From IMG/VR virus record IMGVR_UViG_3300043775_002819: a DNA stretch of 20,000 bases. One strand, written 5' to 3'. Origin of the DNA: an uncultured virus (IMG/VR IMGVR_UViG_3300043775_002819) (Duplodnaviria > Heunggongvirae > Uroviricota > Caudoviricetes). Numbering within the stretch: position 1 is the stretch's first letter; the number at the start of each line of letters is the position of its first letter. Position numbers and translations under genes: made by a program. Below, one piece after another: positions 2,034 through 17,820 of the stretch. The notes under the pieces were generated by a model. It had not been told where the DNA came from. It did not search any database and saw only the letters and a list, made by a program, of their open reading frames with translations.

Positions 2034-4871
2034 TTAAGCGGTCTTCATTCCGTCGGGATTTTTAATTGCCGCCGCCACTTTATCTTTATTTAACAATTTT
2101 GTGTTTGCCCTTGAATTAATCGCAACATCTATCAACTCTGAGTCAGATTTCCCTTGTTTTACGGCATCGGTTAATTCATTTGCAAACTTTTTGAAGAAAC
2201 CAGGTCCATTCCAACACGCATAAGTCATATGAACCAAAAGCCCTTTGTTTTTCATAATTTTGTCTTTGACTTCTTGGTCTTTAACAAAATTTGACATATT
2301 TCTATCAAATGATCTTTTCATTATTTTAGCGGCCAATTCTTTTAATTCCTCTTCGTTTTCACCACCTCGATATAACCATTTCCATTTTTTACAAAAAGCG
2401 TCCATTCCCAATTCTTCTTTTTGGTTGTCTATAATTTCAAAAAATTGTTTACCCTCAGGGGTGCTTTCTATGTTACCGTTATATCTATCTAACCCGAACA
2501 TAGTTTCTGTTGATGAACCCATACTTCCCTTCGGGTGATTTTTACAAATTCCTAATTTACTTGTGCTCTCATTTTTTGACGTTGATCCGTTCCAATATCC
2601 GCCCTCAAAATTGGCAATCACTTTTTTTGTGATTTCCATAAAATCTGAATCACTTCCTGATGTTTGAGAAACCGTCGCGGTTGATGTCTGTGTTGATTTA
2701 GTATCGTCCTCATCTGATGTTTCTTTGGATCCAAACAACGAACCAATCTTGTTTTTAAGTATTTGACTAAGATTAGACTTCAACGATCCAAAATTTAAAA
2801 TATCACCAACAAGTTGTCCTTGATTTGTTTCTAAAGATTTGTCGTCGGATAAGTTAATAACTGACGGTTCTGTCGTTTTAGAATATAAACCTTCTGATGT
2901 TTCATGTGGTGGATATTTTTCAGGTAAAGTGTATTTAAAGAAATATTGTCTGATTTTTACTCCTGACTTATTATTAAAGTCTAAAACTTGTGTAATGTTT
3001 CTTGCTCCCATTTTTTCTAATTCTTTTTTTAATGGTCCTACTTGACCCAACGCTCTAATATCGGCCCCACCACCTGCAGATCCTCTTGTTGAAACTCCCA
3101 TGTAAGCATTTCCATCTTGACTTTCATCCAAAGTTGCTTCCCACTGAACCGTATAATTTTTAGAGTCTACTGTTATGTTTATATTCACAACGTCGGGATT
3201 GATTCCTGCGTTGTAAATTTCTTTTAACTTTTCTCCAATTTTTGTTGTCATTTTACCCCCAAAACCATCTTTTTTTCTTCTTTCAAATGAGTGAAGAGCA
3301 TCAGCATCCCCTTTGGGTGCTGAATATCCATCTTTAATTATTAATGGTAAACTAATTTTTTGTTCTTTTATTAGGTTTTTTGGGTTCAGAAGAATTGATG
3401 TTGGGCTACTTAATATTTTTTTTTTAGTAATGTATTTTTCTTGTATTTTGGTGGAAGACTTTATTTTTTCTTTTAAAGTTTTTACAAACTCAGCCTGAAT
3501 GTCTTTTAACAAATCAACATAAGATTCTCTAACTCTTTGTTCAGGTTCTTGGAACTTAGAATTAGAGTATAGATAGTTAATACCAGAAATATTTGTAATA
3601 CATTTATGTCCTCCTGAATTAGCCATAATAACATCATAACCATTTACAGAAGCCTTGTTAAATACTTTTCTATCTTCCGCAGGTATTGATTTGAAAAGTT
3701 TTTTTGACATGTAATCAAGATATTTTTCAAGTTTTTCTGTCCCATAAATCTTCAAAGATGGTGAATTTCCATATATTGCTAAAAAGTCTTTAAATGTAAA
3801 TCCAACTGAAGTTTTATCAGAGTCCATTTCTGATATTCTTTTAAGTGTTCCAAATGAAATTCTTTGTTTTTCTAATTCAGGTCTAAACTTTTCTAATACC
3901 TCATTTTTTATTTCACCTAAATCAACACCCTTTAACGCTCTTTCTTTTTTATATGGATTACAAGATGCTTGAACCATTCCCATTGGAAGTCCTGTCACTA
4001 AGAACTCAGCGTCAGGATGATTGATGAATGGTGTGTAACGATCATATCCACCTGATTTTTGCGTTGGTCCTAATGTATATTGTGAAATAATACCATCTTC
4101 ATAAGTAACACCTTTTTCTTTTCTTGATTCAATATAGGACTCTTGGTTTTTTATCAATTGGTCTATTGACGCATAACCTTCTTTTTCCATTATATCTTTT
4201 ATATTTAATAAAATACTCTGAAGTGATGGTTTTGCATCCATAACTAACTTTTTCAAAAACCCAGGTTTGTTTTTAAACGCTAATAATAACTTGTTAGCAA
4301 CAAGTCCCATCATTTTTTTATTTTCTTTAACTCCTTTTGTTTTATCCACTTGGAATAGATATTTCAAAACTTGTTGTGGAGTAATATCATGTTTTGCAAA
4401 ATCTGCTGAGTCAATCATAGAAATTGTTTCGATATCGTCTTGACTAAAAATATCTCTTGGTGAAATTGATTGTGAAATTGTTTCAACATTCGATCTTGAT
4501 GGTTTGAAGTTTGTTGATGTTCCCTGTTCTACACCAGCTTGAGTGTCGTGGTGATCTGTGTGAATTACAAACATCGGTTTACCGTGAGCAAAATCCACTA
4601 AGACTGGCATTATATCACCTTCACCTTCAGGTTTATGAATTGCAAACTCTTTTGATCCATATTGAATAATTTCGGCATCAACAACTTTGATTCCGTTGTT
4701 TTCCAAATAGTTTTTCATTGCCAATGCCGTGGTAACTCCATCTAAATCTTGATGAAAATAGATTTTGGCCATTTGATATCTTTTGGAAAGTTTTTTAATA
4801 TCTCTGATACCACTTTCTTTAAGTAGTTTTTTAGATTCTTCAGTTATTACTTGAATTATTAAATCTCTCAT
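2034..4871 (-). CDS. Multidomain protein: N-terminal DHH-family phosphoesterase, central unknown domain, S/T-rich linker, C-terminal lysozyme-like (GH108-like) domain
   Basis: DHH motifs HQDLDG (aa ~40-45), LVDF, TDHHD (D106-H108) and a distal GGH (aa 420-422). The C-terminal IANFEGGYWN...ETMFGL (E756) resembles the GH108 EGGY...ETxxGI signature. Confidence 0.75.
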   Translation of the reverse strand: MRDLIIQVITEESKKLLKESGIRDIKKLSKRYQMAKIYFHQDLDGVTTALAMKNYLENNGIKVVDAEIIQYGSKEFAIHKPEGEGDIMPVLVDFAHGKPMFVIHTDHHDTQAGVEQGTSTNFKPSRSNVETISQSISPRDIFSQDDIETISMIDSADFAKHDITPQQVLKYLFQVDKTKGVKENKKMMGLVANKLLLAFKNKPGFLKKLVMDAKPSLQSILLNIKDIMEKEGYASIDQLIKNQESYIESRKEKGVTYEDGIISQYTLGPTQKSGGYDRYTPFINHPDAEFLVTGLPMGMVQASCNPYKKERALKGVDLGEIKNEVLEKFRPELEKQRISFGTLKRISEMDSDKTSVGFTFKDFLAIYGNSPSLKIYGTEKLEKYLDYMSKKLFKSIPAEDRKVFNKASVNGYDVIMANSGGHKCITNISGINYLYSNSKFQEPEQRVRESYVDLLKDIQAEFVKTLKEKIKSSTKIQEKYITKKKILSSPTSILLNPKNLIKEQKISLPLIIKDGYSAPKGDADALHSFERRKKDGFGGKMTTKIGEKLKEIYNAGINPDVVNINITVDSKNYTVQWEATLDESQDGNAYMGVSTRGSAGGGADIRALGQVGPLKKELEKMGARNITQVLDFNNKSGVKIRQYFFKYTLPEKYPPHETSEGLYSKTTEPSVINLSDDKSLETNQGQLVGDILNFGSLKSNLSQILKNKIGSLFGSKETSDEDDTKSTQTSTATVSQTSGSDSDFMEITKKVIANFEGGYWNGSTSKNESTSKLGICKNHPKGSMGSSTETMFGLDRYNGNIESTPEGKQFFEIIDNQKEELGMDAFCKKWKWLYRGGENEEELKELAAKIMKRSFDRNMSNFVKDQEVKDKIMKNKGLLVHMTYACWNGPGFFKKFANELTDAVKQGKSDSELIDVAINSRANTKLLNKDKVAAAIKNPDGMKTA

Positions 4872-7543: not shown

Positions 7544-8113
7544 TTATTTGATAATAGTAACAAAACCTGAAATAACTTTCAATTCATCAGAGTCTAATAA
7601 GTCAATTTTCATAATCCAAGAGTATGTTCCATCAGGAACAAAACTACCATTATATGTTCCGTCCCAATTTGTATTTGCGTTTTTACTTTGCCAAACAATA
7701 TTTCCCCACCTATTATAAACCGTAAGTTCAAAGTTTTCTAAAGAAATCCCACTTGTTATTACTGGTCCCCACGTTTGATTAAATTCATTATTATCGGGTG
7801 TAAAAGAATTTGGGACCCAATAAATTAAGGGATCACATTTTGTTACACTCACATTATACACAACAGGTGGACCTGGACATCCTAAATCATTATAACCAAC
7901 CGCCACTATTTGATAATCACCAGGTTGACTATATGTAATACTCATATCGTTTCCGTTTCCTAAACTGAAACCATTCAAAAACCATTCAATAGTTCCACTC
8001 ATATCAATTGAAGTTGAATATGTCACGGTATTTGAACTTTCACATATTTCAAATTCTTGTTGTGAAAAACAAGTTAAACTAAAAAATAAAAACAAAAACA
8101 ATAATTGTTTCAT
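7544..8113 (-). CDS. Secreted protein with Ig/PKD-like domain and T9SS type-B (gliding motility-associated, CHU_C-like) C-terminal domain
   Basis: Signal peptide MKQLLFLFLFFSLTCFSQ. C-terminus YWVPNSFTPDNNEFN...LTVYNRWGNIVW...WDGTYNG...PDGTYSW...GFVTIIK matches the type-B CTD pattern PNxFTPNxDGxND...IYNRWG...WDG...GTY. Confidence 0.88.
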   Translation of the reverse strand: MKQLLFLFLFFSLTCFSQQEFEICESSNTVTYSTSIDMSGTIEWFLNGFSLGNGNDMSITYSQPGDYQIVAVGYNDLGCPGPPVVYNVSVTKCDPLIYWVPNSFTPDNNEFNQTWGPVITSGISLENFELTVYNRWGNIVWQSKNANTNWDGTYNGSFVPDGTYSWIMKIDLLDSDELKVISGFVTIIK

Positions 8114-8679
8114 TAGTTATGTGATATTGGTGTTAATGTTGGTAATGGGTTTACAACTACGTTTATTGTTGTTGAAAATGAACATCCTCCGTTTGAATAT
8201 AAATAAGATATTGTGTGTGTTCCTGCTCCCGCAGTTTGAGGACAGAATTGACCATTAACAACACCAGGTCCCGACCAAATCCCACCCGCAGGAGTTCCAA
8301 CTAAAGGAACACATGGATCTGTTGAACAAAATGGTCCAATTTGAGTTATTGTTGGAACAACATTATAAATTAAAACATTTAGGTTAACCGCTGGTGAAAA
8401 ACACCCTTGAGGACTTGTATAAGTAACCGACACACCATTATTGATAAGACCCGCAGGACAATTGGACCAATTGACAAATATTGTATTTGTTCCTTGCCCT
8501 GATTGGATTGTTGCACACGCAGGGATTGTCCAGTTATAGTTTCCATTACCAACTGAAGTAACGGTGTATTGAGAAAGGGTTCCTGATTGAAAACAAATTG
8601 TGTCGGGATTGTTTGTTGTTAATTGACCAAAAAGTGTTGTAGTCAAAAACATGAATAGTAATACAAATAATTTTTTCAT
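8113..8679 (-). CDS. Secreted adhesin-like protein with two PKD/Ig-like beta domains, C-terminal PISHN
   Basis: Signal peptide MKKLFVLLFMFLTTTLFGQ. YNWTIP...IQSGQGTNTIFVNW (PKD-like) and GTPAGGIWSGPGV...FCPQTAGAGTHTISY are segments typical of Bacteroidota surface proteins. Confidence 0.8.
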   Translation of the reverse strand: MKKLFVLLFMFLTTTLFGQLTTNNPDTICFQSGTLSQYTVTSVGNGNYNWTIPACATIQSGQGTNTIFVNWSNCPAGLINNGVSVTYTSPQGCFSPAVNLNVLIYNVVPTITQIGPFCSTDPCVPLVGTPAGGIWSGPGVVNGQFCPQTAGAGTHTISYLYSNGGCSFSTTINVVVNPLPTLTPISHN

Positions 8680-8688
8680 TTTTTTATT

Positions 8689-9744
8689 TTAATTATGGTT
8701 TATTGGACCTAACAATATTTGATTAGGTTGGGTTATAGTTACAGATCCTGTTGCTGTGCAACCACTTATATTTACCGTTACGGTATATGTGCCAGGACAA
8801 AGATTTGATATTGAAGGGGTTGTTTGTCCTCCCGGTGACCAAAGAAAAGTGGCCCCTGGTGTTGTTACATTTGAGTTTGCGGTTCCATCACATAATCCAA
8901 AACATGTGACATTTGTTGAGGTTGGGTTAACCACCAAATTAACGGGTGTGTAAGTGATTGTTAAATATCCGTGTCCTGTGTTGTTTGTGGGTAAACAAGT
9001 TCCTCCAACAGGGACAAGTGAAGATCCTCCACCGCCACCACCTCCACCGTTAGCACCAGTGCAACATCCATCATTTCCTCCACCGCCACCGCCATAACGA
9101 CCGCCACCGCCACCGCCACCTGATGCCGTTTGCCAAAATCCACCATTTCCACCTTGACCTAATGTTCCTGCTTGACCACCAGGAGGTGTTCCTGCCCAAG
9201 GAGCACCACCATTTCCTCCTGCAACTTGTGTTCCTCCTCCACCGCCAGCACCAAAGGTATTTCCTCCGTTTGCTCCGTTATTACATAAGGCTCCACCACC
9301 AGGTGTATTTGTGTTTGATCCTCCACCTTTACCACCACCCGCTCCTGCAACAATTACTCTATTTGCAAGTGCGGTTCCTCCAATTCTAATATCAGTTGCA
9401 CCTCCACCACCACAAGAATTATATGTTACATTCGCAGGGTTAGAAGCATATCCTGTTCCTCCACCATTCCATCCTCCTGAATTATTTCCACATGTCCCCA
9501 TTCCACCAACATATATATTCAGAGTTTGACCTGGTGTTACGGCTATTGTTGCGGTTATTCTTGCTCCGTTTCCTCCAATAGCACCTCCACCTTTTGCTCC
9601 TGCGGCGACTACATTGATAGAAGTAACACAAGGTGGAACAACCCATGTTTGAACAGCACCTGTATAATTAAAAGTTACGGTTTGAGTTTGTGATAAACTA
9701 ATGAAAAATAGAAATATAGATACTATAAAAGATATTAGTTTCAT
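8689..9744 (-). CDS. Secreted glycine-rich-domain protein with one SprB-like repeat, C-terminal PINHN
   Basis: Signal peptide MKLISFIVSIFLFFISLSQ (start moved from 9750 to 9744). FNYTGAVQTWVVP...GAKGG...GGGGATDIR...VIVAGAGGG is a Gly-rich domain. NVTCFGLCDGTA...FLWSPG...SNLCPGTYTVTV...GCT is SprB repeat-like. Confidence 0.82.
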   Translation of the reverse strand: MKLISFIVSIFLFFISLSQTQTVTFNYTGAVQTWVVPPCVTSINVVAAGAKGGGAIGGNGARITATIAVTPGQTLNIYVGGMGTCGNNSGGWNGGGTGYASNPANVTYNSCGGGGATDIRIGGTALANRVIVAGAGGGKGGGSNTNTPGGGALCNNGANGGNTFGAGGGGGTQVAGGNGGAPWAGTPPGGQAGTLGQGGNGGFWQTASGGGGGGGRYGGGGGGNDGCCTGANGGGGGGGGSSLVPVGGTCLPTNNTGHGYLTITYTPVNLVVNPTSTNVTCFGLCDGTANSNVTTPGATFLWSPGGQTTPSISNLCPGTYTVTVNISGCTATGSVTITQPNQILLGPINHN

Positions 9745-9748
9745 ACAC

Positions 9749-9755
9749 ATAAATA
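9749..9755 (-). promoter_or_regulatory. TATTTAT motif 4 nt upstream of ATG 9744
   Basis: Minus strand reads TATTTAT-GTGT-ATG at the head of the adhesin-like cassette. Confidence 0.55.
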
Positions 9756-11114: not shown

Positions 11115-11760
11115 ACTTGGTATCGTAGTAACCTAAATTGTTGCCGTATGGATCCCTAAATAGGGGATAATTGTTTAAGATGTTGTCAATTTGGGGGTAA
11201 AGATTTTCTGTTTCCCAGTAACTTTCTTTGTCAGGTAGAAAGTCATTAAGATATTCACTTACAACAACTTTAGGATCCCACCACTCACCATCTTTTTCGG
11301 CTCTTACTACTTTCACATTATTGTATAAACCAAAACTTTCATTATCCCAATAACTTGTTGATACACCAACTGATTCAATAAATAATTTGTATCTTTCATA
11401 ACCAATAAAAGGAGTTCCTAATGTAAAATTAATCTCTTTAACGGAATTAAACACTTTTTGAATTCTTGATTTTAATTCTTCATTTAAATAAATTCCTTGT
11501 TTAAAGTTTGGTACAAAATACACATCAATTTTTTCATTTACAAAATCCCCAAAGTCTTCTGTTTCATCATAAATATAATCCCCAACAATTGGTGAAAAAT
11601 ATGAAACATCATTCGGGTTTTGAACTCTGAAATACATGTTAGTTCTACCATTTCTTCTAACAGATGGTTCTACTTTAACGGGTGTAACAACCAAACCATG
11701 TATGTCCAAAGGATCACCTGCAAAATGTTTGAATAGTTTTAATATTTTTTCGTTATCCAT
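11104..11760 (-). CDS. Hypothetical protein, 218 aa
   Basis: ORF coupled by TAATG overlap to the lysozyme gene. Overlaps the uvrC 3' end convergently by 11 bp. Confidence 0.8.
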   Translation of the reverse strand: MDNEKILKLFKHFAGDPLDIHGLVVTPVKVEPSVRRNGRTNMYFRVQNPNDVSYFSPIVGDYIYDETEDFGDFVNEKIDVYFVPNFKQGIYLNEELKSRIQKVFNSVKEINFTLGTPFIGYERYKLFIESVGVSTSYWDNESFGLYNNVKVVRAEKDGEWWDPKVVVSEYLNDFLPDKESYWETENLYPQIDNILNNYPLFRDPYGNNLGYYDTKFIQ

Positions 11761-12677
11761 TACCCAAACATTTTATATTCTCTTTCTCGTCTTGTTTTCA
11801 AACCAGGGTATTCGTTAAACATGTGAGAACTTGTGTTTAGTATTTCCTTTTTTGCCCCTTCCAAATCACCTCGTTTAACATATTGGATAAAATCGGATGT
11901 TCTAATACCAGGTCCCATGTTGTATGCCATAGACACCATTGCATCATACATACTTTGAGTTATTGGTGGCGTAATTCCTTGTTCTTCCCACTGATCTAGT
12001 ATTCTATTGATAATACTTTCTGCCTCTTTAATATCGTCTTTAAGTAGTGTTTCTGCTTGTTCTTTTGTGATTTTGGTTTTACCTGAAATGATTTTATTAT
12101 ATCTTGGAAGAAATTCAAACGATTCTTCTTCATCAGGAAACACAGCATGACCATAACCAATTGTTTTTGCACCATCACCAAGATTATAAGCCGTTAATAC
12201 TGGTTCACCTTTATGGATTATTGAACCTTCTTCCCATTTTAAATGATTTAATAATTTGTCTGATGACTTTCTAATCCTTAAATCCTTAACGACATTTTTA
12301 ATAATTTCTTTTTCTTGTTTAACTGCAGTTTCAAGTGGTGGTTCTAAATAATTTTTTATTTGTCCAATACTAATAAGACCAATTAAAGAAAAAATCACAT
12401 ATTTGATAATTTTTCTTTTAATTTGAGAAGGTAGGTTTTTTATTTTATTAGACAAAGTCTGTAAAAACTCTTTGGCATCTTCTTTTGTTTGAACCCAAGA
12501 TTTTGCTAAATCAATATCCTTTTTAACATTTTCAAAGTCCCATTCCATGTCTGGTTCGGTTTTACCATCATTCTCTATGATTAATGATAGTTTGAACACC
12601 ATGTCATCTATAATACTTTCATAAACGAATTTAGTTTGGATTCTTTGAAATTGTTCTTCTGTAAGTGAAACTTTCAT
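11760..12677 (-). CDS. GH24 phage lysozyme/muramidase with ~135-aa N-terminal extension
   Basis: LKWEEG...AYNLGDGAKTIGYGH, ITKEQAETLLKDDI, QSMYDAMVSMAYNMG and GLKTRREREYKMF are GH24 motifs. N-terminus has an MKVSLTEEQ leader and a hydrophobic segment YVIFSLIGLISIG. Confidence 0.9.
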   Translation of the reverse strand: MKVSLTEEQFQRIQTKFVYESIIDDMVFKLSLIIENDGKTEPDMEWDFENVKKDIDLAKSWVQTKEDAKEFLQTLSNKIKNLPSQIKRKIIKYVIFSLIGLISIGQIKNYLEPPLETAVKQEKEIIKNVVKDLRIRKSSDKLLNHLKWEEGSIIHKGEPVLTAYNLGDGAKTIGYGHAVFPDEEESFEFLPRYNKIISGKTKITKEQAETLLKDDIKEAESIINRILDQWEEQGITPPITQSMYDAMVSMAYNMGPGIRTSDFIQYVKRGDLEGAKKEILNTSSHMFNEYPGLKTRREREYKMFG

Positions 12678-13089: not shown

Positions 13090-14046
13090 CTATCTAAATT
13101 TTTTTTTCAAATTATCAAGTTTTGCCTTTTTTAAGGCAGAGTTCAAATTAGGATGATACAACATCGATCTGTTGTTGTTAATGGCATCATAATTTATTTT
13201 TTTTGGTTCTTTCGGAATATCTCTTTTTGGTTGATTAGAAAAAATCGTAGAAATAGATTCGTGTTTCAACTTTTTTTTCTCATATTCGGTTATTTCGTGT
13301 TCTTCTTTTAACTCAATCAAAGATTTTGTAAATTCTTTATTTTCAATATCAACAACTTTATATTCACTCGTTTTGAGCCCCTCCAATTTTAAAAAATGTT
13401 TTGGTTTATTTTTACTAATGAAAAAATATTTAGCCCTAATTTTTGATGATAAGTTTGTCTCAGGATGAATTGTTAAAGAATTTTTGTGTAATCTTCTATG
13501 AAATAGAATATGATTCGTATGTAATATTTTTAAATTCATTTTATATAGTCGAGACATAAGATCTGAGTCTGCGGCAACTCTCCATCCCTCAAATCCATTA
13601 ATACTTAAAAATATGTCTTTTTTAATCCCAAAAACTCCCTCACCAAATGTATTTTTTTGTTGTTTGAACTCTCGTTGATTGTTCTTATCCTCAAAATCAA
13701 TATATTTTGGTTTGATCAAATCATATATGTTTAATTGACTGTCAATTTCCTCAAATAAATTTGGCAGAATAACATCATCAGAATCAAAGAACAAAATTTT
13801 ATTATACTGACTTATTTCAACTAAAGTATTTTTAATTAGATAGGGACCTTGATTTTCCAAAAAGAAAAAAAACTTAAAGTTTTTTGGAAATTCTTTATTA
13901 TAAATGTAATCGATCGTTTCATAACAATTATCAATTCCAATCAAAACTTCAAATTCATTATCATATCTACTATTTTCTATAGATAAAAAAAGTTCATCCA
14001 AAAAAATAACATTTTTATAAGTTGGTATAATAACACTTAAACTCAT
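13090..14046 (-). CDS. Glycosyltransferase family 2 with C-terminal extension
   Basis: SVIIPTYK, EVLIGID, ENQGPY..KN, LFFDSDD (DxD), INGFE...ADSDL. Confidence 0.9.
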   Translation of the reverse strand: MSLSVIIPTYKNVIFLDELFLSIENSRYDNEFEVLIGIDNCYETIDYIYNKEFPKNFKFFFFLENQGPYLIKNTLVEISQYNKILFFDSDDVILPNLFEEIDSQLNIYDLIKPKYIDFEDKNNQREFKQQKNTFGEGVFGIKKDIFLSINGFEGWRVAADSDLMSRLYKMNLKILHTNHILFHRRLHKNSLTIHPETNLSSKIRAKYFFISKNKPKHFLKLEGLKTSEYKVVDIENKEFTKSLIELKEEHEITEYEKKKLKHESISTIFSNQPKRDIPKEPKKINYDAINNNRSMLYHPNLNSALKKAKLDNLKKKFR

Positions 14047-14993
14047 CTGAATTTCTTTTTATTAAATGTTGAAATTTGTTTTGAATTAAGTTTCAGATTA
14101 TTTGTATTAACCTGTGGTTTTTGTTGTGTATTATTTTGTAAATTTGAAAATATTCTATTAACTTTTTGGTAATCAATTGTTTTTTTATTTATTTCTAAAG
14201 TTTTTTCAATTTTTACCGGTTCATGTGGTGGTGGAGTTGGTTGCGGAATTGATATATTAGGAATTTGTTCTAACGAATTATTTTTATTATAGTTTTTTAA
14301 ATTTTCTAAGTTAATCGTTTTATTAAAAATAGAATTTACAACTTGTGTTTGTATAAAATCATTTTTAGATTCTACATCATAAATTGTGGTTTTTTGTGGT
14401 ATATATTGTATATAACCTTTTAGGTGTTTCAAACAAATAATCTCAATTTTATTTTCCATACAATATTTTCCTAACCAAACATCGGCCATATTTGGAAATA
14501 TAAAATATTCAAATGGTATTTTAAGTAAATTGGTATGAAAACACATCAATCCTGTTCCTCCAAATTGCACTTTTGTGTCTTTCGAGACCTCTTGTAAAAA
14601 ATGATATCTTTTTGATTTGGATTTGTAATATGATTGTATAGGGAAATTTTCAAAATTTCTTCCATGATAAGTAATTACTTTTTTTCTTTCGTAAAAGTCG
14701 CATTTTTGAATGATTTTTTTTATAAAATTTTTAGGGTAAATTATATCATCGTCTAATGTAATGTAATAAGCATCTTCGGTATTATTTAAAAAATAAAACT
14801 TATAAGCATCTCCCTTTGAGTTGTCAGTTATTAAAATATTAATCTTATTGTCAAAAAGAAATTTTGGTATTTCACCTTCATAAGAATTTAAGGCAACGTT
14901 TATTTTGTCACAATCTTCAATTACCGAATTTATTACTTTTTCTAAACCATCATTTCTTTTGTATGATGATATATTCACAACAATTTTACTCAT
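14043..14993 (-). CDS. GT-A fold glycosyltransferase (GT2-like) with C-terminal low-complexity tail
   Basis: SSYKR, KGDAYKF, YYITLDDDIIYP, GGTGLMCF and NMADVW motifs. Lies within the GT cluster. Confidence 0.78.
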   Translation of the reverse strand: MSKIVVNISSYKRNDGLEKVINSVIEDCDKINVALNSYEGEIPKFLFDNKINILITDNSKGDAYKFYFLNNTEDAYYITLDDDIIYPKNFIKKIIQKCDFYERKKVITYHGRNFENFPIQSYYKSKSKRYHFLQEVSKDTKVQFGGTGLMCFHTNLLKIPFEYFIFPNMADVWLGKYCMENKIEIICLKHLKGYIQYIPQKTTIYDVESKNDFIQTQVVNSIFNKTINLENLKNYNKNNSLEQIPNISIPQPTPPPHEPVKIEKTLEINKKTIDYQKVNRIFSNLQNNTQQKPQVNTNNLKLNSKQISTFNKKKFR

Positions 14994-14994
14994 C

Positions 14995-15696
14995 TTAAAA
15001 AATATTTAAGTCATTAACCATTCTTTCGTTAATGTTCATTTTTGATTTTTCAAAACCATGTTTAACTAATGATACTTTGGTATGATACATTGTATAACCT
15101 AAATCATTTAACCTTTTTGTTAATTGGTATCCAACCCCTGAACTTAAATTTGGGTCTTTGTTCCATCTGTTTTCTGAAATGGGGTTAATTTTGAAATCTA
15201 AAACCTCAAAGAATTTTTTTTCCGCAATAAAATCTAATTCAACCCATTGTGTTTGAATGTAATTGTCAATTATGTTTGGTGTAAAGTTTGACCAATTTGG
15301 TCTTTTTGTTCTTACATCGGTTCTAAACTCCAAAGAAATTTTTTTGTGGTCATTTAAATTCTCATATAAATTTGTAACGTCTAAAATAAAATTATCATCC
15401 ACTAATAAGTCATCTTGTAAGTATATATAATATTTTGATTCAATATTCCTTATATATTTAAAAGTCTGATCGATTATATACCAAAACTTTTTTTTACCGT
15501 GATTATTTGAAAATTTTATATATTTTATATTTTCATCGTAATTAATAAGATTTTCTTTACCTCCGTCATCAAAAACTACGATTTGAATTTTTTTATCCCC
15601 TTTTTGATGTAAAATTTTTTTTAAAAGGTTTTTTAGTGCCAACTGTCTATCAAAAGTGGTGATTATGATGCAGTAGTCAAATACTTGGTTTCCCAT
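14995..15696 (-). CDS. Glycosyltransferase family 2-like
   Basis: IIITTFDR, IVVFDDGG, NHGK, YIYLQDD, SLVKHG. Confidence 0.82.
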   Translation of the reverse strand: MGNQVFDYCIIITTFDRQLALKNLLKKILHQKGDKKIQIVVFDDGGKENLINYDENIKYIKFSNNHGKKKFWYIIDQTFKYIRNIESKYYIYLQDDLLVDDNFILDVTNLYENLNDHKKISLEFRTDVRTKRPNWSNFTPNIIDNYIQTQWVELDFIAEKKFFEVLDFKINPISENRWNKDPNLSSGVGYQLTKRLNDLGYTMYHTKVSLVKHGFEKSKMNINERMVNDLNIF

Positions 15697-15702
15697 AGAG
15701 AA

Positions 15703-16413
15703 TTAAATTTTAAAAATTTTTTGTTTAGATATATATTCTCTAACCATATTTTTATTTGTTCTTCCTAGTCTTTTTAAAGTAGTATTAGGGTGATTTTTTC
15801 TATAAATATAAATTGGTTCTTTTATTACAGACACTTCTTTTTTTGAACACTGTTCCAAACATGGATAACTGTATGCCAAATCTGTACAATTTGTAAAAAA
15901 ATTACCGTCCATTTTTAAAATAGTTTCAGGTATCGTATCAATCAAACTTTTTCTAAAAGTGTTTAAAGCAGTAGCTTTCCATTTTGTTTTTCTAAATAAT
16001 TTTAATTCAAAAGTTTCTTCACTGTATTCTTCAACTTCAAAAACAACATTAGTGTCCATATCAACCCAATTGCCGTATGTCATTTTTATTTCTGGTGTAT
16101 AATAATTAGTAACTATTTCCAAAGCATCTAAACTTAATTTATCATCTAAACCAACAAAAGAAACAATTTCACCTTGTGCTAATTTATTTAAGTTATACCT
16201 ACCATATAATGCACCCATATTTGTTTCATTGTTATATATTTTTATATTTTTATTTGATTTGAATTGCTCTAAAACTTTTTTGGTAGAATCAACGCTCCCA
16301 TCATTATAAATTAATATTTCAAAATTATCATATGTTTGATTCAGAATTGACCGAATACACTCTTCGGCATATAACTCACAATTGAATCCTGTTACAATTA
16401 CAGAATGTTTCAT
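15703..16413 (-). CDS. Glycosyltransferase family 2
   Basis: SVIVTGFN, CIRSILNQTYDNFEILIYNDGSVDST, NMGALYGR, YIYR. The DxD position reads FVGLDD. Confidence 0.9.
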   Translation of the reverse strand: MKHSVIVTGFNCELYAEECIRSILNQTYDNFEILIYNDGSVDSTKKVLEQFKSNKNIKIYNNETNMGALYGRYNLNKLAQGEIVSFVGLDDKLSLDALEIVTNYYTPEIKMTYGNWVDMDTNVVFEVEEYSEETFELKLFRKTKWKATALNTFRKSLIDTIPETILKMDGNFFTNCTDLAYSYPCLEQCSKKEVSVIKEPIYIYRKNHPNTTLKRLGRTNKNMVREYISKQKIFKI

Positions 16414-16414
16414 T

Positions 16415-17050
16415 TTATTTAATTACTTTACAATCTTTAAAAATATGGAAATCAGTTAGATCTCTATATCCATTTATTTCATTTAAATCTATATTGTTTT
16501 CGGGATAATTTTGTAAAAGGCAAAGTCCATGAGCAGCTTCCTGTGGTGTCATATACATATTCCAACCAATTGTTTCAATATTATCTTCTTTATAAAACTT
16601 TTCACTTCTACCCTCATATCTTGCCTTTTTAAACCACTTTGCGGCCACTTCATCGTCCGTTAGTATCATACCTCCTTTTCCAATACCAAGTTGTTTTTTT
16701 ATATGGAAAGATAAACCCATATAAGAACCAGGAATATACATGTTTGATGTTAATCTTTTTGCTGAGTCATAAATTGGATATGGTTTTAATTGATATAAAC
16801 CGCTCCAATGATTTGTAATTTCCCTTTTATCAAAAATAACTTCACCACCAGCATTAATTATACTCATAGGGACAGATAAATATGTTTTTGAGGGAATCGT
16901 AACTTCTTTAACTTGATGATATTTACACATCAAAAATAAGGCATTTGTACAACTATCAACAGATATTGCATATTTAGCACCAGTGTAAGAAGCAATTTCT
17001 TCTTCAAACATTTTTACTATTTTGTATGGGTTATGTTCTTTTATTGGCAT
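16415..17050 (-). CDS. DegT/DnrJ/EryC1/StrS-family PLP aminotransferase, compact (211 aa)
   Basis: FEEEIASYTGAKYAISVDSCTNALFL, VTIPSKTYLSV, YDSA, SFHIKKQL..GKGGMILTDD, GWNMYM. Confidence 0.85.
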   Translation of the reverse strand: MPIKEHNPYKIVKMFEEEIASYTGAKYAISVDSCTNALFLMCKYHQVKEVTIPSKTYLSVPMSIINAGGEVIFDKREITNHWSGLYQLKPYPIYDSAKRLTSNMYIPGSYMGLSFHIKKQLGIGKGGMILTDDEVAAKWFKKARYEGRSEKFYKEDNIETIGWNMYMTPQEAAHGLCLLQNYPENNIDLNEINGYRDLTDFHIFKDCKVIK

Positions 17051-17055
17051 ATTTT

Positions 17056-17820
17056 TTATTTTGGTACAAATTTTATTAATTGAGATTGTAACTTTTTCAT
17101 AAAGGCAATTTCAGTATCTGTATTTTTTTTTGTGTAGGTTCTTTCATTTATATTAAAATAACTTTTTTTGTTACAAATAATTTCACTATTTGACTCAACA
17201 ATTTCAATATCATCAGTTTTAGGTATTTTTTTTATTAAATCCCATTTCTCCTGTAAAGTTATGTCGGTAAATTGTGGTTTAACTTTAGAAGTTATATTTT
17301 TTGCAGGACTTCCGGCGTAAACTTGATCTGTTTCCATATCTTTTGTTATTACACTACCAACCAAGGCCATTGATCTATCTTTTGCGTGTATTGGTGAAAC
17401 AATACAATGACCAACAAACCAAACATCATTCCCAATTGTCAAAGGTTTATTATCGTTGTAGTTACAACCAATTAAAGGATCCCCATACTTAATATGACTC
17501 CACAATTGAGAATAGGCACCAATACCACAATTGTTTCCAATAGTAACTCCACCTATAGAATCAATTATACAACCTTGTCCAATCCATGCGTTATGTCCTA
17601 TTTTCATAGGTAAATAACCATGAATATTTGTGTGATGGTGTATTTTACAATAATCACCAATTTCTAATTCATCAATTATTATTTGAACATTGTCGCCGAT
17701 ATAAGTATTATCACCTATTGTTATTTTTTTTGCATTACCATTTATTCCTTTTATAGTTGCCTTAGGTGAAATAAAAGTATTTTTACCTACTCGGAAATCC
17801 TCACAAAAAACATTATTCAT
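17056..17820 (-). CDS. Hexapeptide-repeat (left-handed beta-helix) sugar acyltransferase
   Basis: Repeated IGDNTYIG, IGDYCKI, IGHNAWIG, IGNNCGIG, IGNDVWF and the motif GSVITKD...YAGSPAK. Confidence 0.9.
   Translation of the reverse strand: MNNVFCEDFRVGKNTFISPKATIKGINGNAKKITIGDNTYIGDNVQIIIDELEIGDYCKIHHHTNIHGYLPMKIGHNAWIGQGCIIDSIGGVTIGNNCGIGAYSQLWSHIKYGDPLIGCNYNDNKPLTIGNDVWFVGHCIVSPIHAKDRSMALVGSVITKDMETDQVYAGSPAKNITSKVKPQFTDITLQEKWDLIKKIPKTDDIEIVESNSEIICNKKSYFNINERTYTKKNTDTEIAFMKKLQSQLIKFVPK

Follow-up and report, generated by a model that had tools for sequence, protein, structure and literature searches.

Three adjacent genes on a phage genome probably encode one adhesin of the T9SS, split into a head (gene A), a stalk (gene B) and an anchor (gene C) that would be rejoined by non-covalent C-terminal donor-strand complementation, with heads that can be swapped. 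Proteins A and B end in a shared tail, and B and C begin with an Ig domain that we propose as its acceptor. The tail is real, conserved and widespread across phages and bacteria. Its structural role is well supported by homology and modelling, and export of the CTD-less pieces by piggy-back on the CTD-bearing one may plausibly be inferred.

The three-gene cassette

We analyzed a 20,000-nucleotide stretch of DNA (the window) from a 70.6 kb virus record (IMG/VR IMGVR_UViG_3300043775_002819), estimated to be 24% complete. Besides many small genes that lack annotation, the record has endolysin, UmuC- and UvrC-like genes, and relatives occur on viral contigs of up to 483 kb. The cassette (Table 1) is flanked by ORFs for UvrC and a GNAT, with no linked chaperone or usher gene. 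Scans for promoters and terminators gave matches at chance level, and RNA runs, which contained only small shares as contigs, are uninformative about expression.

Judged by eye, each of the three genes opens with a hydrophobic leader followed by Gln, as in a Sec leader with Gln at +1, and this Gln is invariant in the alignments of genes B and C. The Gly-rich domain of gene A matches PF12810 (E 4e-9); the start at 9744 used in the preliminary description corresponds to Met3 of this gene and may be the true one. A type B CTD is confined to gene C, which matches CHU_C (PF13585, E 1e-16) and TIGR04131 at its C-terminus and whose ATG overlaps the stop of gene B (TAATG, one shared base). The type B CTD, together with leaders that have Gln at +1, points to a probable phage host among the Bacteroidota. 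A search for PorP in the record itself, at 24% completeness, gave no match, and the search control was equally silent.

Table 1. Features of the putative split adhesin (positions in the window)
Feature	Position	Strand	Description
Gene A, putative head subunit	8689..9750	(-)	353 aa from first ATG; leader, Gly-rich ALK/LTK-like domain, one Ig-like repeat and putative donor tail; no CTD
Gene A putative donor tail	8692..8727	(-)	last 12 codons; PINHN at 8692-8706
Gene B, putative stalk subunit	8113..8679	(-)	188 aa; leader, putative acceptor Ig (PKD_6), second Ig and putative donor tail; no CTD
Gene B putative acceptor Ig domain	8365..8625	(-)	residues 19-105; starts without the P-x-P-T-I-T-G strand carried by internal copies
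Gene B putative donor tail	8116..8151	(-)	residues 177-188; PISHN at 8116-8130
Gene C, putative anchor subunit	7544..8113	(-)	189 aa; leader, putative acceptor Ig and type B T9SS CTD
Gene C putative acceptor Ig domain	7835..8062	(-)	residues 18-93
Type B T9SS C-terminal sorting domain	7553..7816	(-)	CHU_C, residues 100-187 of gene C

Three other regions of the window, all on the minus strand, were recorded as side observations. A 945-aa ORF at 2034-4871 has a weak DHH match at its N-terminus, and the homologous region in another locus (L004) consists of two ORFs of 529 and 494 aa. An endolysin-like lysozyme (PF00959, phrog_7) with a long N-terminal extension lies at 11760-12677, and a cluster at 13090-17820 contains genes that by eye resemble those for glycosyltransferases, aminotransferases and acetyltransferases, possibly for surface or virion glycosylation. 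Across the window and the record, dozens of unrelated ORFs share an N-terminal motif resembling MK(I/K)I(I/L)xE(S/E)Q or MRxLIxxILKEE.

Conservation of the terminal motif in phages

The preliminary description held that two otherwise dissimilar proteins both end in PIxHN, and that the third carries the CTD and lacks the motif. Each of these observations was borne out. Proteins A and B end in GPINHN and TPISHN, their best BLASTP alignment has an E value of 0.20 and is confined to the C-terminal end, and PIxHN is absent from the CHU_C/TIGR04131 protein encoded by gene C. Among the 78 ORFs of at least 100 aa in the 70.6 kb record, exactly two (A and B) end in PIxHN, against an expectation from composition of 0.00025, and these are also the only two that end in HN at all. 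The shared ending is far beyond chance.

The motif is also kept in homologues: 118 of 120 listed homologues of B (817 were found) end in PIxHN, and the other two end in PIQHD. A locus search with B recovered the A-B-C order in 11 of 14 loci, with A replaced by unrelated proteins that still end in GPIxHN, while the other three encode a fused single chain. An association with acceptor or CTD genes emerged from a scan of viral contigs with a DNA pattern for G-P-I-x-H-N-stop (Pro fixed as CCA), which is blind to the cassette. It returned 67 stretches, of which 8 lie in short frames (chance) and 59 end frames of 150 or more codons; all but one of these 59 directly precede an acceptor or CTD gene. 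The long frames amount to 46 distinct sequences, many of them close relatives and two identical to this phage. The single exception (L040) is an orphan gene for a 384-aa propeller-like head. By BLAST clustering, the tail-bearing heads form five unrelated groups, and further such heads occur downstream of gene C in two loci (L031, L046). The TAATG overlap of B and C is found in 40 of 51 phage loci; the gaps between A and B differ among loci (mostly 2-19 nt) and follow no fixed frame. The loci are related to each other, so that counts in phages and in bacteria do not represent independent events. As a separate observation, two loci encode a secreted protein of 816-819 aa, with a CTD that looks type A-like by eye, directly upstream of gene A (L005:2473-4932 and L076:4548-6998).

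Bacterial operons with the same split layout

Both Flavobacteriales and Bacteroidales have operons, apparently chromosomal, with the same split layout, and porP/sprF is often a neighbour. When applied to bacterial genomes, the same DNA scan gave at least 121 stretches, and nearly all of those listed were due to chance. The real genes among them came from five Flavobacteriales genomes and, as in phages, preceded acceptor or CTD genes. Bacterial loci were then selected with a profile of the N-terminal acceptor domain, which excludes the tail motif. A search of bacterial genomes with the close gene B alignment found no loci, a loose IxH[NY]-stop DNA pattern was no clearer in five genomes than its reversed control, and a phylum search with the gene C alignment returned mostly fused CTD proteins.

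The acceptor profile matches 102 of 401 Flavobacteriales genomes, counting N-terminal and internal copies together and including the seed genomes. Of 60 regions, 58 were analyzed (56 around matches that start at the model start, plus the G004 and G005 clusters), leaving out two G001 regions that showed no acceptor. Each of the 57 acceptors that carry a CTD is preceded by an ORF whose end lies no more than 200 nt away, and 47 of these ORFs end in IxHx. Among 60 CTD-less acceptors, 48 have an abutting upstream ORF, 32 of which end in IxHx, and 12 have none. Several other bacterial acceptors adjoin unrelated genes. Within the 58 regions, none of the 64 CTD frames has the IxHx ending; of the 269 other frames only 6 have it, and these six lie inside the same clusters. 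Ile at -4 alone is uninformative, being present in 97 of the 269 background frames through conserved neighbours.

In the order of a Bacteroidales genome, the profile matches 93 of 201 genomes. Across 32 Bacteroidales regions, an ORF lies upstream of 34 of the 43 acceptors; 14 of these 34 ORFs end in IxHx, and 22 have IxH followed by 1-8 residues, such that the motif is often not terminal. The downstream gene is PorP/SprF in all four Bacteroidales loci tested. In samples centred on one Cyclobacteriaceae genome and one Niabella genome, almost all of the matches listed are internal, and one of eight regions checked is split (L430). Many bacterial copies lie among housekeeping genes (gyrB-, guaA- and ftsK-like, with names read from translations) and for this reason appear to be chromosomal.

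Further arrangements were noted in these genomes. Two Flavobacteriales loci (L333, L335) contain two complete stalk-anchor-head cassettes in tandem, with the heads downstream of the CTD gene. In L325, L331, L341, L414 and L415, stalk genes have no abutting upstream head gene, and heads may come in trans. In L426 (minus strand, frames of 1915 and 312 aa), L428 and L420, large proteins with a tail-like end (PTPIILH in L426) lie upstream of small PKD-like proteins whose Lys-rich end resembles, by eye, a type A CTD; chaining may extend to type A cargo.

A rival possibility is that the subunits form an open-ended polymer, in which B, carrying both acceptor and donor, repeats between an A tip and a C anchor to give a chaperone-free pilus-like fibre exported by the T9SS. 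The tails of A and B in the window are nearly identical, the acceptors of B and C align to one model, and operons with two middle genes exist (L312, L423). Overlapping stop and start codons, however, usually accompany coupled and near-equal translation, and most phage loci have the TAATG overlap of B and C. Tails in Flavobacteriales are also position-specific: Gly stands two before the Ile in 52 of 56 tails that face a CTD acceptor versus at most 2 of 43 that face a middle acceptor, where it is outside the four commonest residues, a contrast that shared ancestry could also explain. Stalk length would instead be set by the length of the B gene, which varies from 150 to 640 aa. We regard the polymer as quite unlikely.

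The tail as the probable first half of a split strand

For comparison with fused forms we used 149 proteins from a whole-library profile search, almost all of them giant repeat adhesins, none of which ends in HN, HD or IxHx. In 69 internal domain copies within giant adhesins, the sequence up to a conserved Cys reads P-x-P-T-I-T-G-P-x-x-V-C, with Ile in 84% and Gly in 92%. N-terminal acceptors start mostly 5-10 residues ahead of this Cys and lack a strand that is present in their complete homologues. Gly occupies the position five before the Cys in 45 of 50 internal copies and is outside the four commonest residues there in 88 acceptors. The same phage record encodes, outside the window, a fused paralogue of 816 aa (G000:C1:40201-42651) with head, repeats, PKD-like Ig and CHU_C, in which P-I-T-G-S stands where gene A has P-I-N-H-N, just ahead of the PKD-like domain. 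Because fused homologues carry a strand at that spot and the acceptors begin without it, the tail is best read as the opening half of strand A in the domain that follows, His standing where Gly would be.

Fused single-chain forms are also found in L012-L014 and in a 635 kb phage. L005 and L012 belong to one contig, on which split and fused adhesins coexist as well. In a quick, unfinished tree of the last Ig domain and CTD (81 rows, the short ones including leaders), three fused phage proteins group with 11 split phage anchors in a branch with 97% support, and two fused bacterial proteins fall among split ones. This nesting suggests that split and fused forms may interconvert. When the 7-row alignments of B and C were compared as profiles, only the leaders matched.

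An alternative is that the tail serves as a sorting signal or chaperone-binding site for a host factor, such as a minimal secretion signal or a PDZ/BAM-type C-terminal motif, and contributes no structural strand. The conservation of His beyond the needs of strand pairing, the usual location of the motif at the extreme C-terminus and the orphan motif-bearing head away from any acceptor (L040) would suit such a signal. Recognition of a terminal carboxylate fits poorly with Bacteroidales tails that extend for several residues, and a signal of this kind would not predict a motif exactly at the strand A position of fused homologues, next to acceptors that lack that strand. We consider it very unlikely, and retain the split strand as our reading of the tail.

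Structure models

AlphaFold2 predicted gene B alone as two tandem Ig domains with no strand after residue 177 and an unstructured tail; its fold matches are tandem Ig proteins, including GhpA. Strand complementation was then assessed with a complex model of B and C, which covers the B-C junction, with A-B joining proposed by analogy. In this model, the tail of B inserts into the Ig domain of C with a score of 0.73, against 0.00 for the best control. The mark for this score is reached by 116 of 157 solved pairs and 2 of 215 mismatched pairs, a benchmark that applies only roughly because we used our own 7-row alignments. Runs share at least 98% of contacts, and partner pLDDT is at least 81.

On the B side, the interface comprises residues 177-188 and four further residues (116, 118-120). 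The strand formed by the tail is short, at about 6-8 residues, and might not hold during translocation; in the model it is antiparallel to strand 30-38 of gene C. I185 packs against Y32, T34, I69, A71, V84 and Y86, and L182 against T34, I36, I42, A71, G73 and V84, which together line the predicted groove. These two residues make the top contacts, and the strong conservation of His is not accounted for by them. The model indicates fit rather than binding, since the two halves of a split gene tend to score well when they resemble solved tandem Ig proteins made as one chain; GhpA and All3314 are relatives of this kind. Folding the fused L012 segment from its sequence alone gave a pLDDT of 35, and the result was set aside.

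Covalent and non-covalent joining

The preliminary description proposed that PIxHN is either a donor strand or a covalent linkage site that chains subunits head-to-tail onto the CTD-bearing protein. Conservation, gene-order association, equivalence to strand A of fused homologues and the B-C model support the donor strand and the chaining by it. The covalent option, a link through the terminal Asn or His-Asn by isopeptide, transpeptidation or intein-like succinimide chemistry, fared less well. HN is nearly invariant in the phage family, and in bacteria a tail Thr often faces an acceptor Glu, so that an ester is possible in principle; however, this Thr/Glu pair is absent from the proteins of the window. 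In the 99 bacterial tails that have Ile at the fourth position from the C-terminus, the final residue is N in 53, Y in 24, W in 10, F in 6, D in 4, and Q and L in one each (46 other than N), and His is present in 79 and absent in 20. With Y, W, F or D as the terminal residue of many bacterial tails, and with others extending beyond the His, the Asn route is unsupported.

Mature protein B has no Lys, as is the case for 119 of 120 homologues, and the only Lys of gene C near the acceptor (K92) is outside the modelled interface. Gln at +1 is cyclised to pyroglutamate in Bacteroidetes (PMC10653852, PMC5837995), so that the subunits, whose mature N-termini are Gln, would offer no free N-terminal amine. 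An invariant Asn with an acceptor amine, as in Lys-Asn isopeptide or sortase-type linkage, is thus not what we found, and a covalent link appears extremely improbable.

Tail and acceptor residues gave one further hint. The position three before the tail Ile covaries with acceptor columns 17, 18 and 58, and Glu goes with 51 of 61 polar tails but with none of the 14 Leu/Ile tails, one gap row being omitted. Column 58 (strand F) is Glu in 81% of the N-terminal acceptors from bacteria, against 10% of internal copies, where Tyr accounts for 68%; this Glu tends to accompany a polar residue three before the tail Ile. We keep this covariation as a hint only because it tracks phage versus bacterium (12 of the 14 Leu/Ile tails are from phages); the three operons that have mixed tails gave one case in agreement, one against and one that is ambiguous.

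Another group of readings is, taken together, just as improbable: that the genes are remnants of a single decaying adhesin, that readthrough or frameshifting fuses them, or that their products belong to the virion. In favor of these are the fused paralogues, the one base shared by B and C, and the match of the Gly-rich domain of gene A to phage families of unknown function. Against them, every piece has retained a leader of its own with the invariant Gln, the same break turns up in different phages and in two orders of bacteria, the A-to-B gaps are variable, and chromosomal copies lie among housekeeping genes.

Proposed assembly and its implications

Taken as a whole, the split-adhesin reading has the three genes encoding one type B T9SS surface adhesin, with a variable head, an Ig stalk and a CTD-bearing anchor, each piece probably exported by Sec with its own leader. 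The break would fall within the opening beta-strand of a PKD-like Ig repeat. The first half of this strand would stay on the upstream piece as a C-terminal tail ending P-I-x-H-x, and the downstream Ig domain, judging by homology, starts without it. In the periplasm, the tail of B is predicted to zip antiparallel to strand B of the acceptor in C, burying its Ile in the acceptor core without a covalent bond, and the tail of A would complete the N-terminal Ig domain of B in the same manner. The rejoined chain would have one terminal CTD, by which the CTD-less pieces could ride along through the host T9SS and be retained by a protein of the PorP/SprF type. A head could be encoded by any gene with the tail at its end, making tips swappable. 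The layout appears to be a host design of bacterial chromosomes that large aquatic phages carry as well; these phages presumably alter the surface of the infected cell.

A broader version would make this a general T9SS plug-and-socket, in which any periplasmic IxH-tailed protein loads onto an acceptor-CTD anchor, middle pieces repeat into a chaperone-free pilus-like fibre, and phage heads, including the orphan L040, re-tip host or phage anchors in trans. This seems rather unlikely to us.

By definition, T9SS cargo has a CTD of its own, and searches for this domain are used to predict lists of cargo. If the split-adhesin reading is true, Bacteroidota from marine, freshwater and anaerobic settings export a class of surface proteins that have no CTD and are missed by such predictions. 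Adhesin tips could then be exchanged one gene at a time, and the pairing of a tail of some 8 residues with a 90-residue socket would make a simple display tool. On this reading, large aquatic phages also carry host-type surface adhesins, both split and fused in one genome.

Comparison with known systems

In the literature covered, which included few subscription papers, we found no account of cargo without a CTD that a terminal strand links to a CTD protein, and none of such cassettes in phages. Transport of complexes is not addressed in the passages of PMC10994853 covered, and those covered on potempins, considered as a piggy-back precedent, make no statement on how they are exported.

As in chaperone-usher pili, an incomplete Ig fold would be completed by a neighbour's strand, and the order is tip, shaft and base. 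The chaperone-usher donor is N-terminal and replaces a missing last strand, with the help of a chaperone and an usher, whereas here the donor is C-terminal, would give the first strand, and has no chaperone or usher gene linked to it. Type V pili of Bacteroidota (FimA/Mfa1) would share the phylum and donor-strand assembly with the proteins described here, and their donor is C-terminal. Donor-strand complementation is established for both kinds of pilus (PMC4789730; for type V, also 10.64898/2026.07.16.738973 and PMC5954841). Type V pilins, however, are described as protease-matured lipoproteins with a different two-domain fold (PMC4789730), unlike the present proteins with Gln+1 SPI-type leaders and PKD-like Ig domains, which match PKD_6 and CHU_C but no fimbrillin in Pfam and tandem Ig proteins in fold.

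Gingipain adhesin complexes (RgpA/Kgp, ABM motifs) offer another parallel, as T9SS cargo pieces that are held together non-covalently on the surface, remaining so after cleavage (PMC5266723). There, one CTD-bearing polyprotein is cut after export, whereas separate genes would require joining before export.

Single-chain type B T9SS cargo proteins such as SprB, PG1035 and Aureispira GhpA likewise have a Sec leader, tandem Ig-like repeats and a CHU_C/TIGR04131 CTD; GhpA matches gene B in structure and the CTD of gene C in sequence. T9SS cargo is reported to fold in the periplasm and to be recognised through its CTD (PMC10202324), and type B cargo to pair with PorP/SprF through this domain (PMC9143113, PMC12618676). 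In the Bacteroidales operons tested porP/sprF comes next, whereas the phage cassette has no adjacent porP. Known type B cargo carries head, stalk and CTD in one chain, while here two of the three pieces are separate, CTD-less and yet predicted to be exported.
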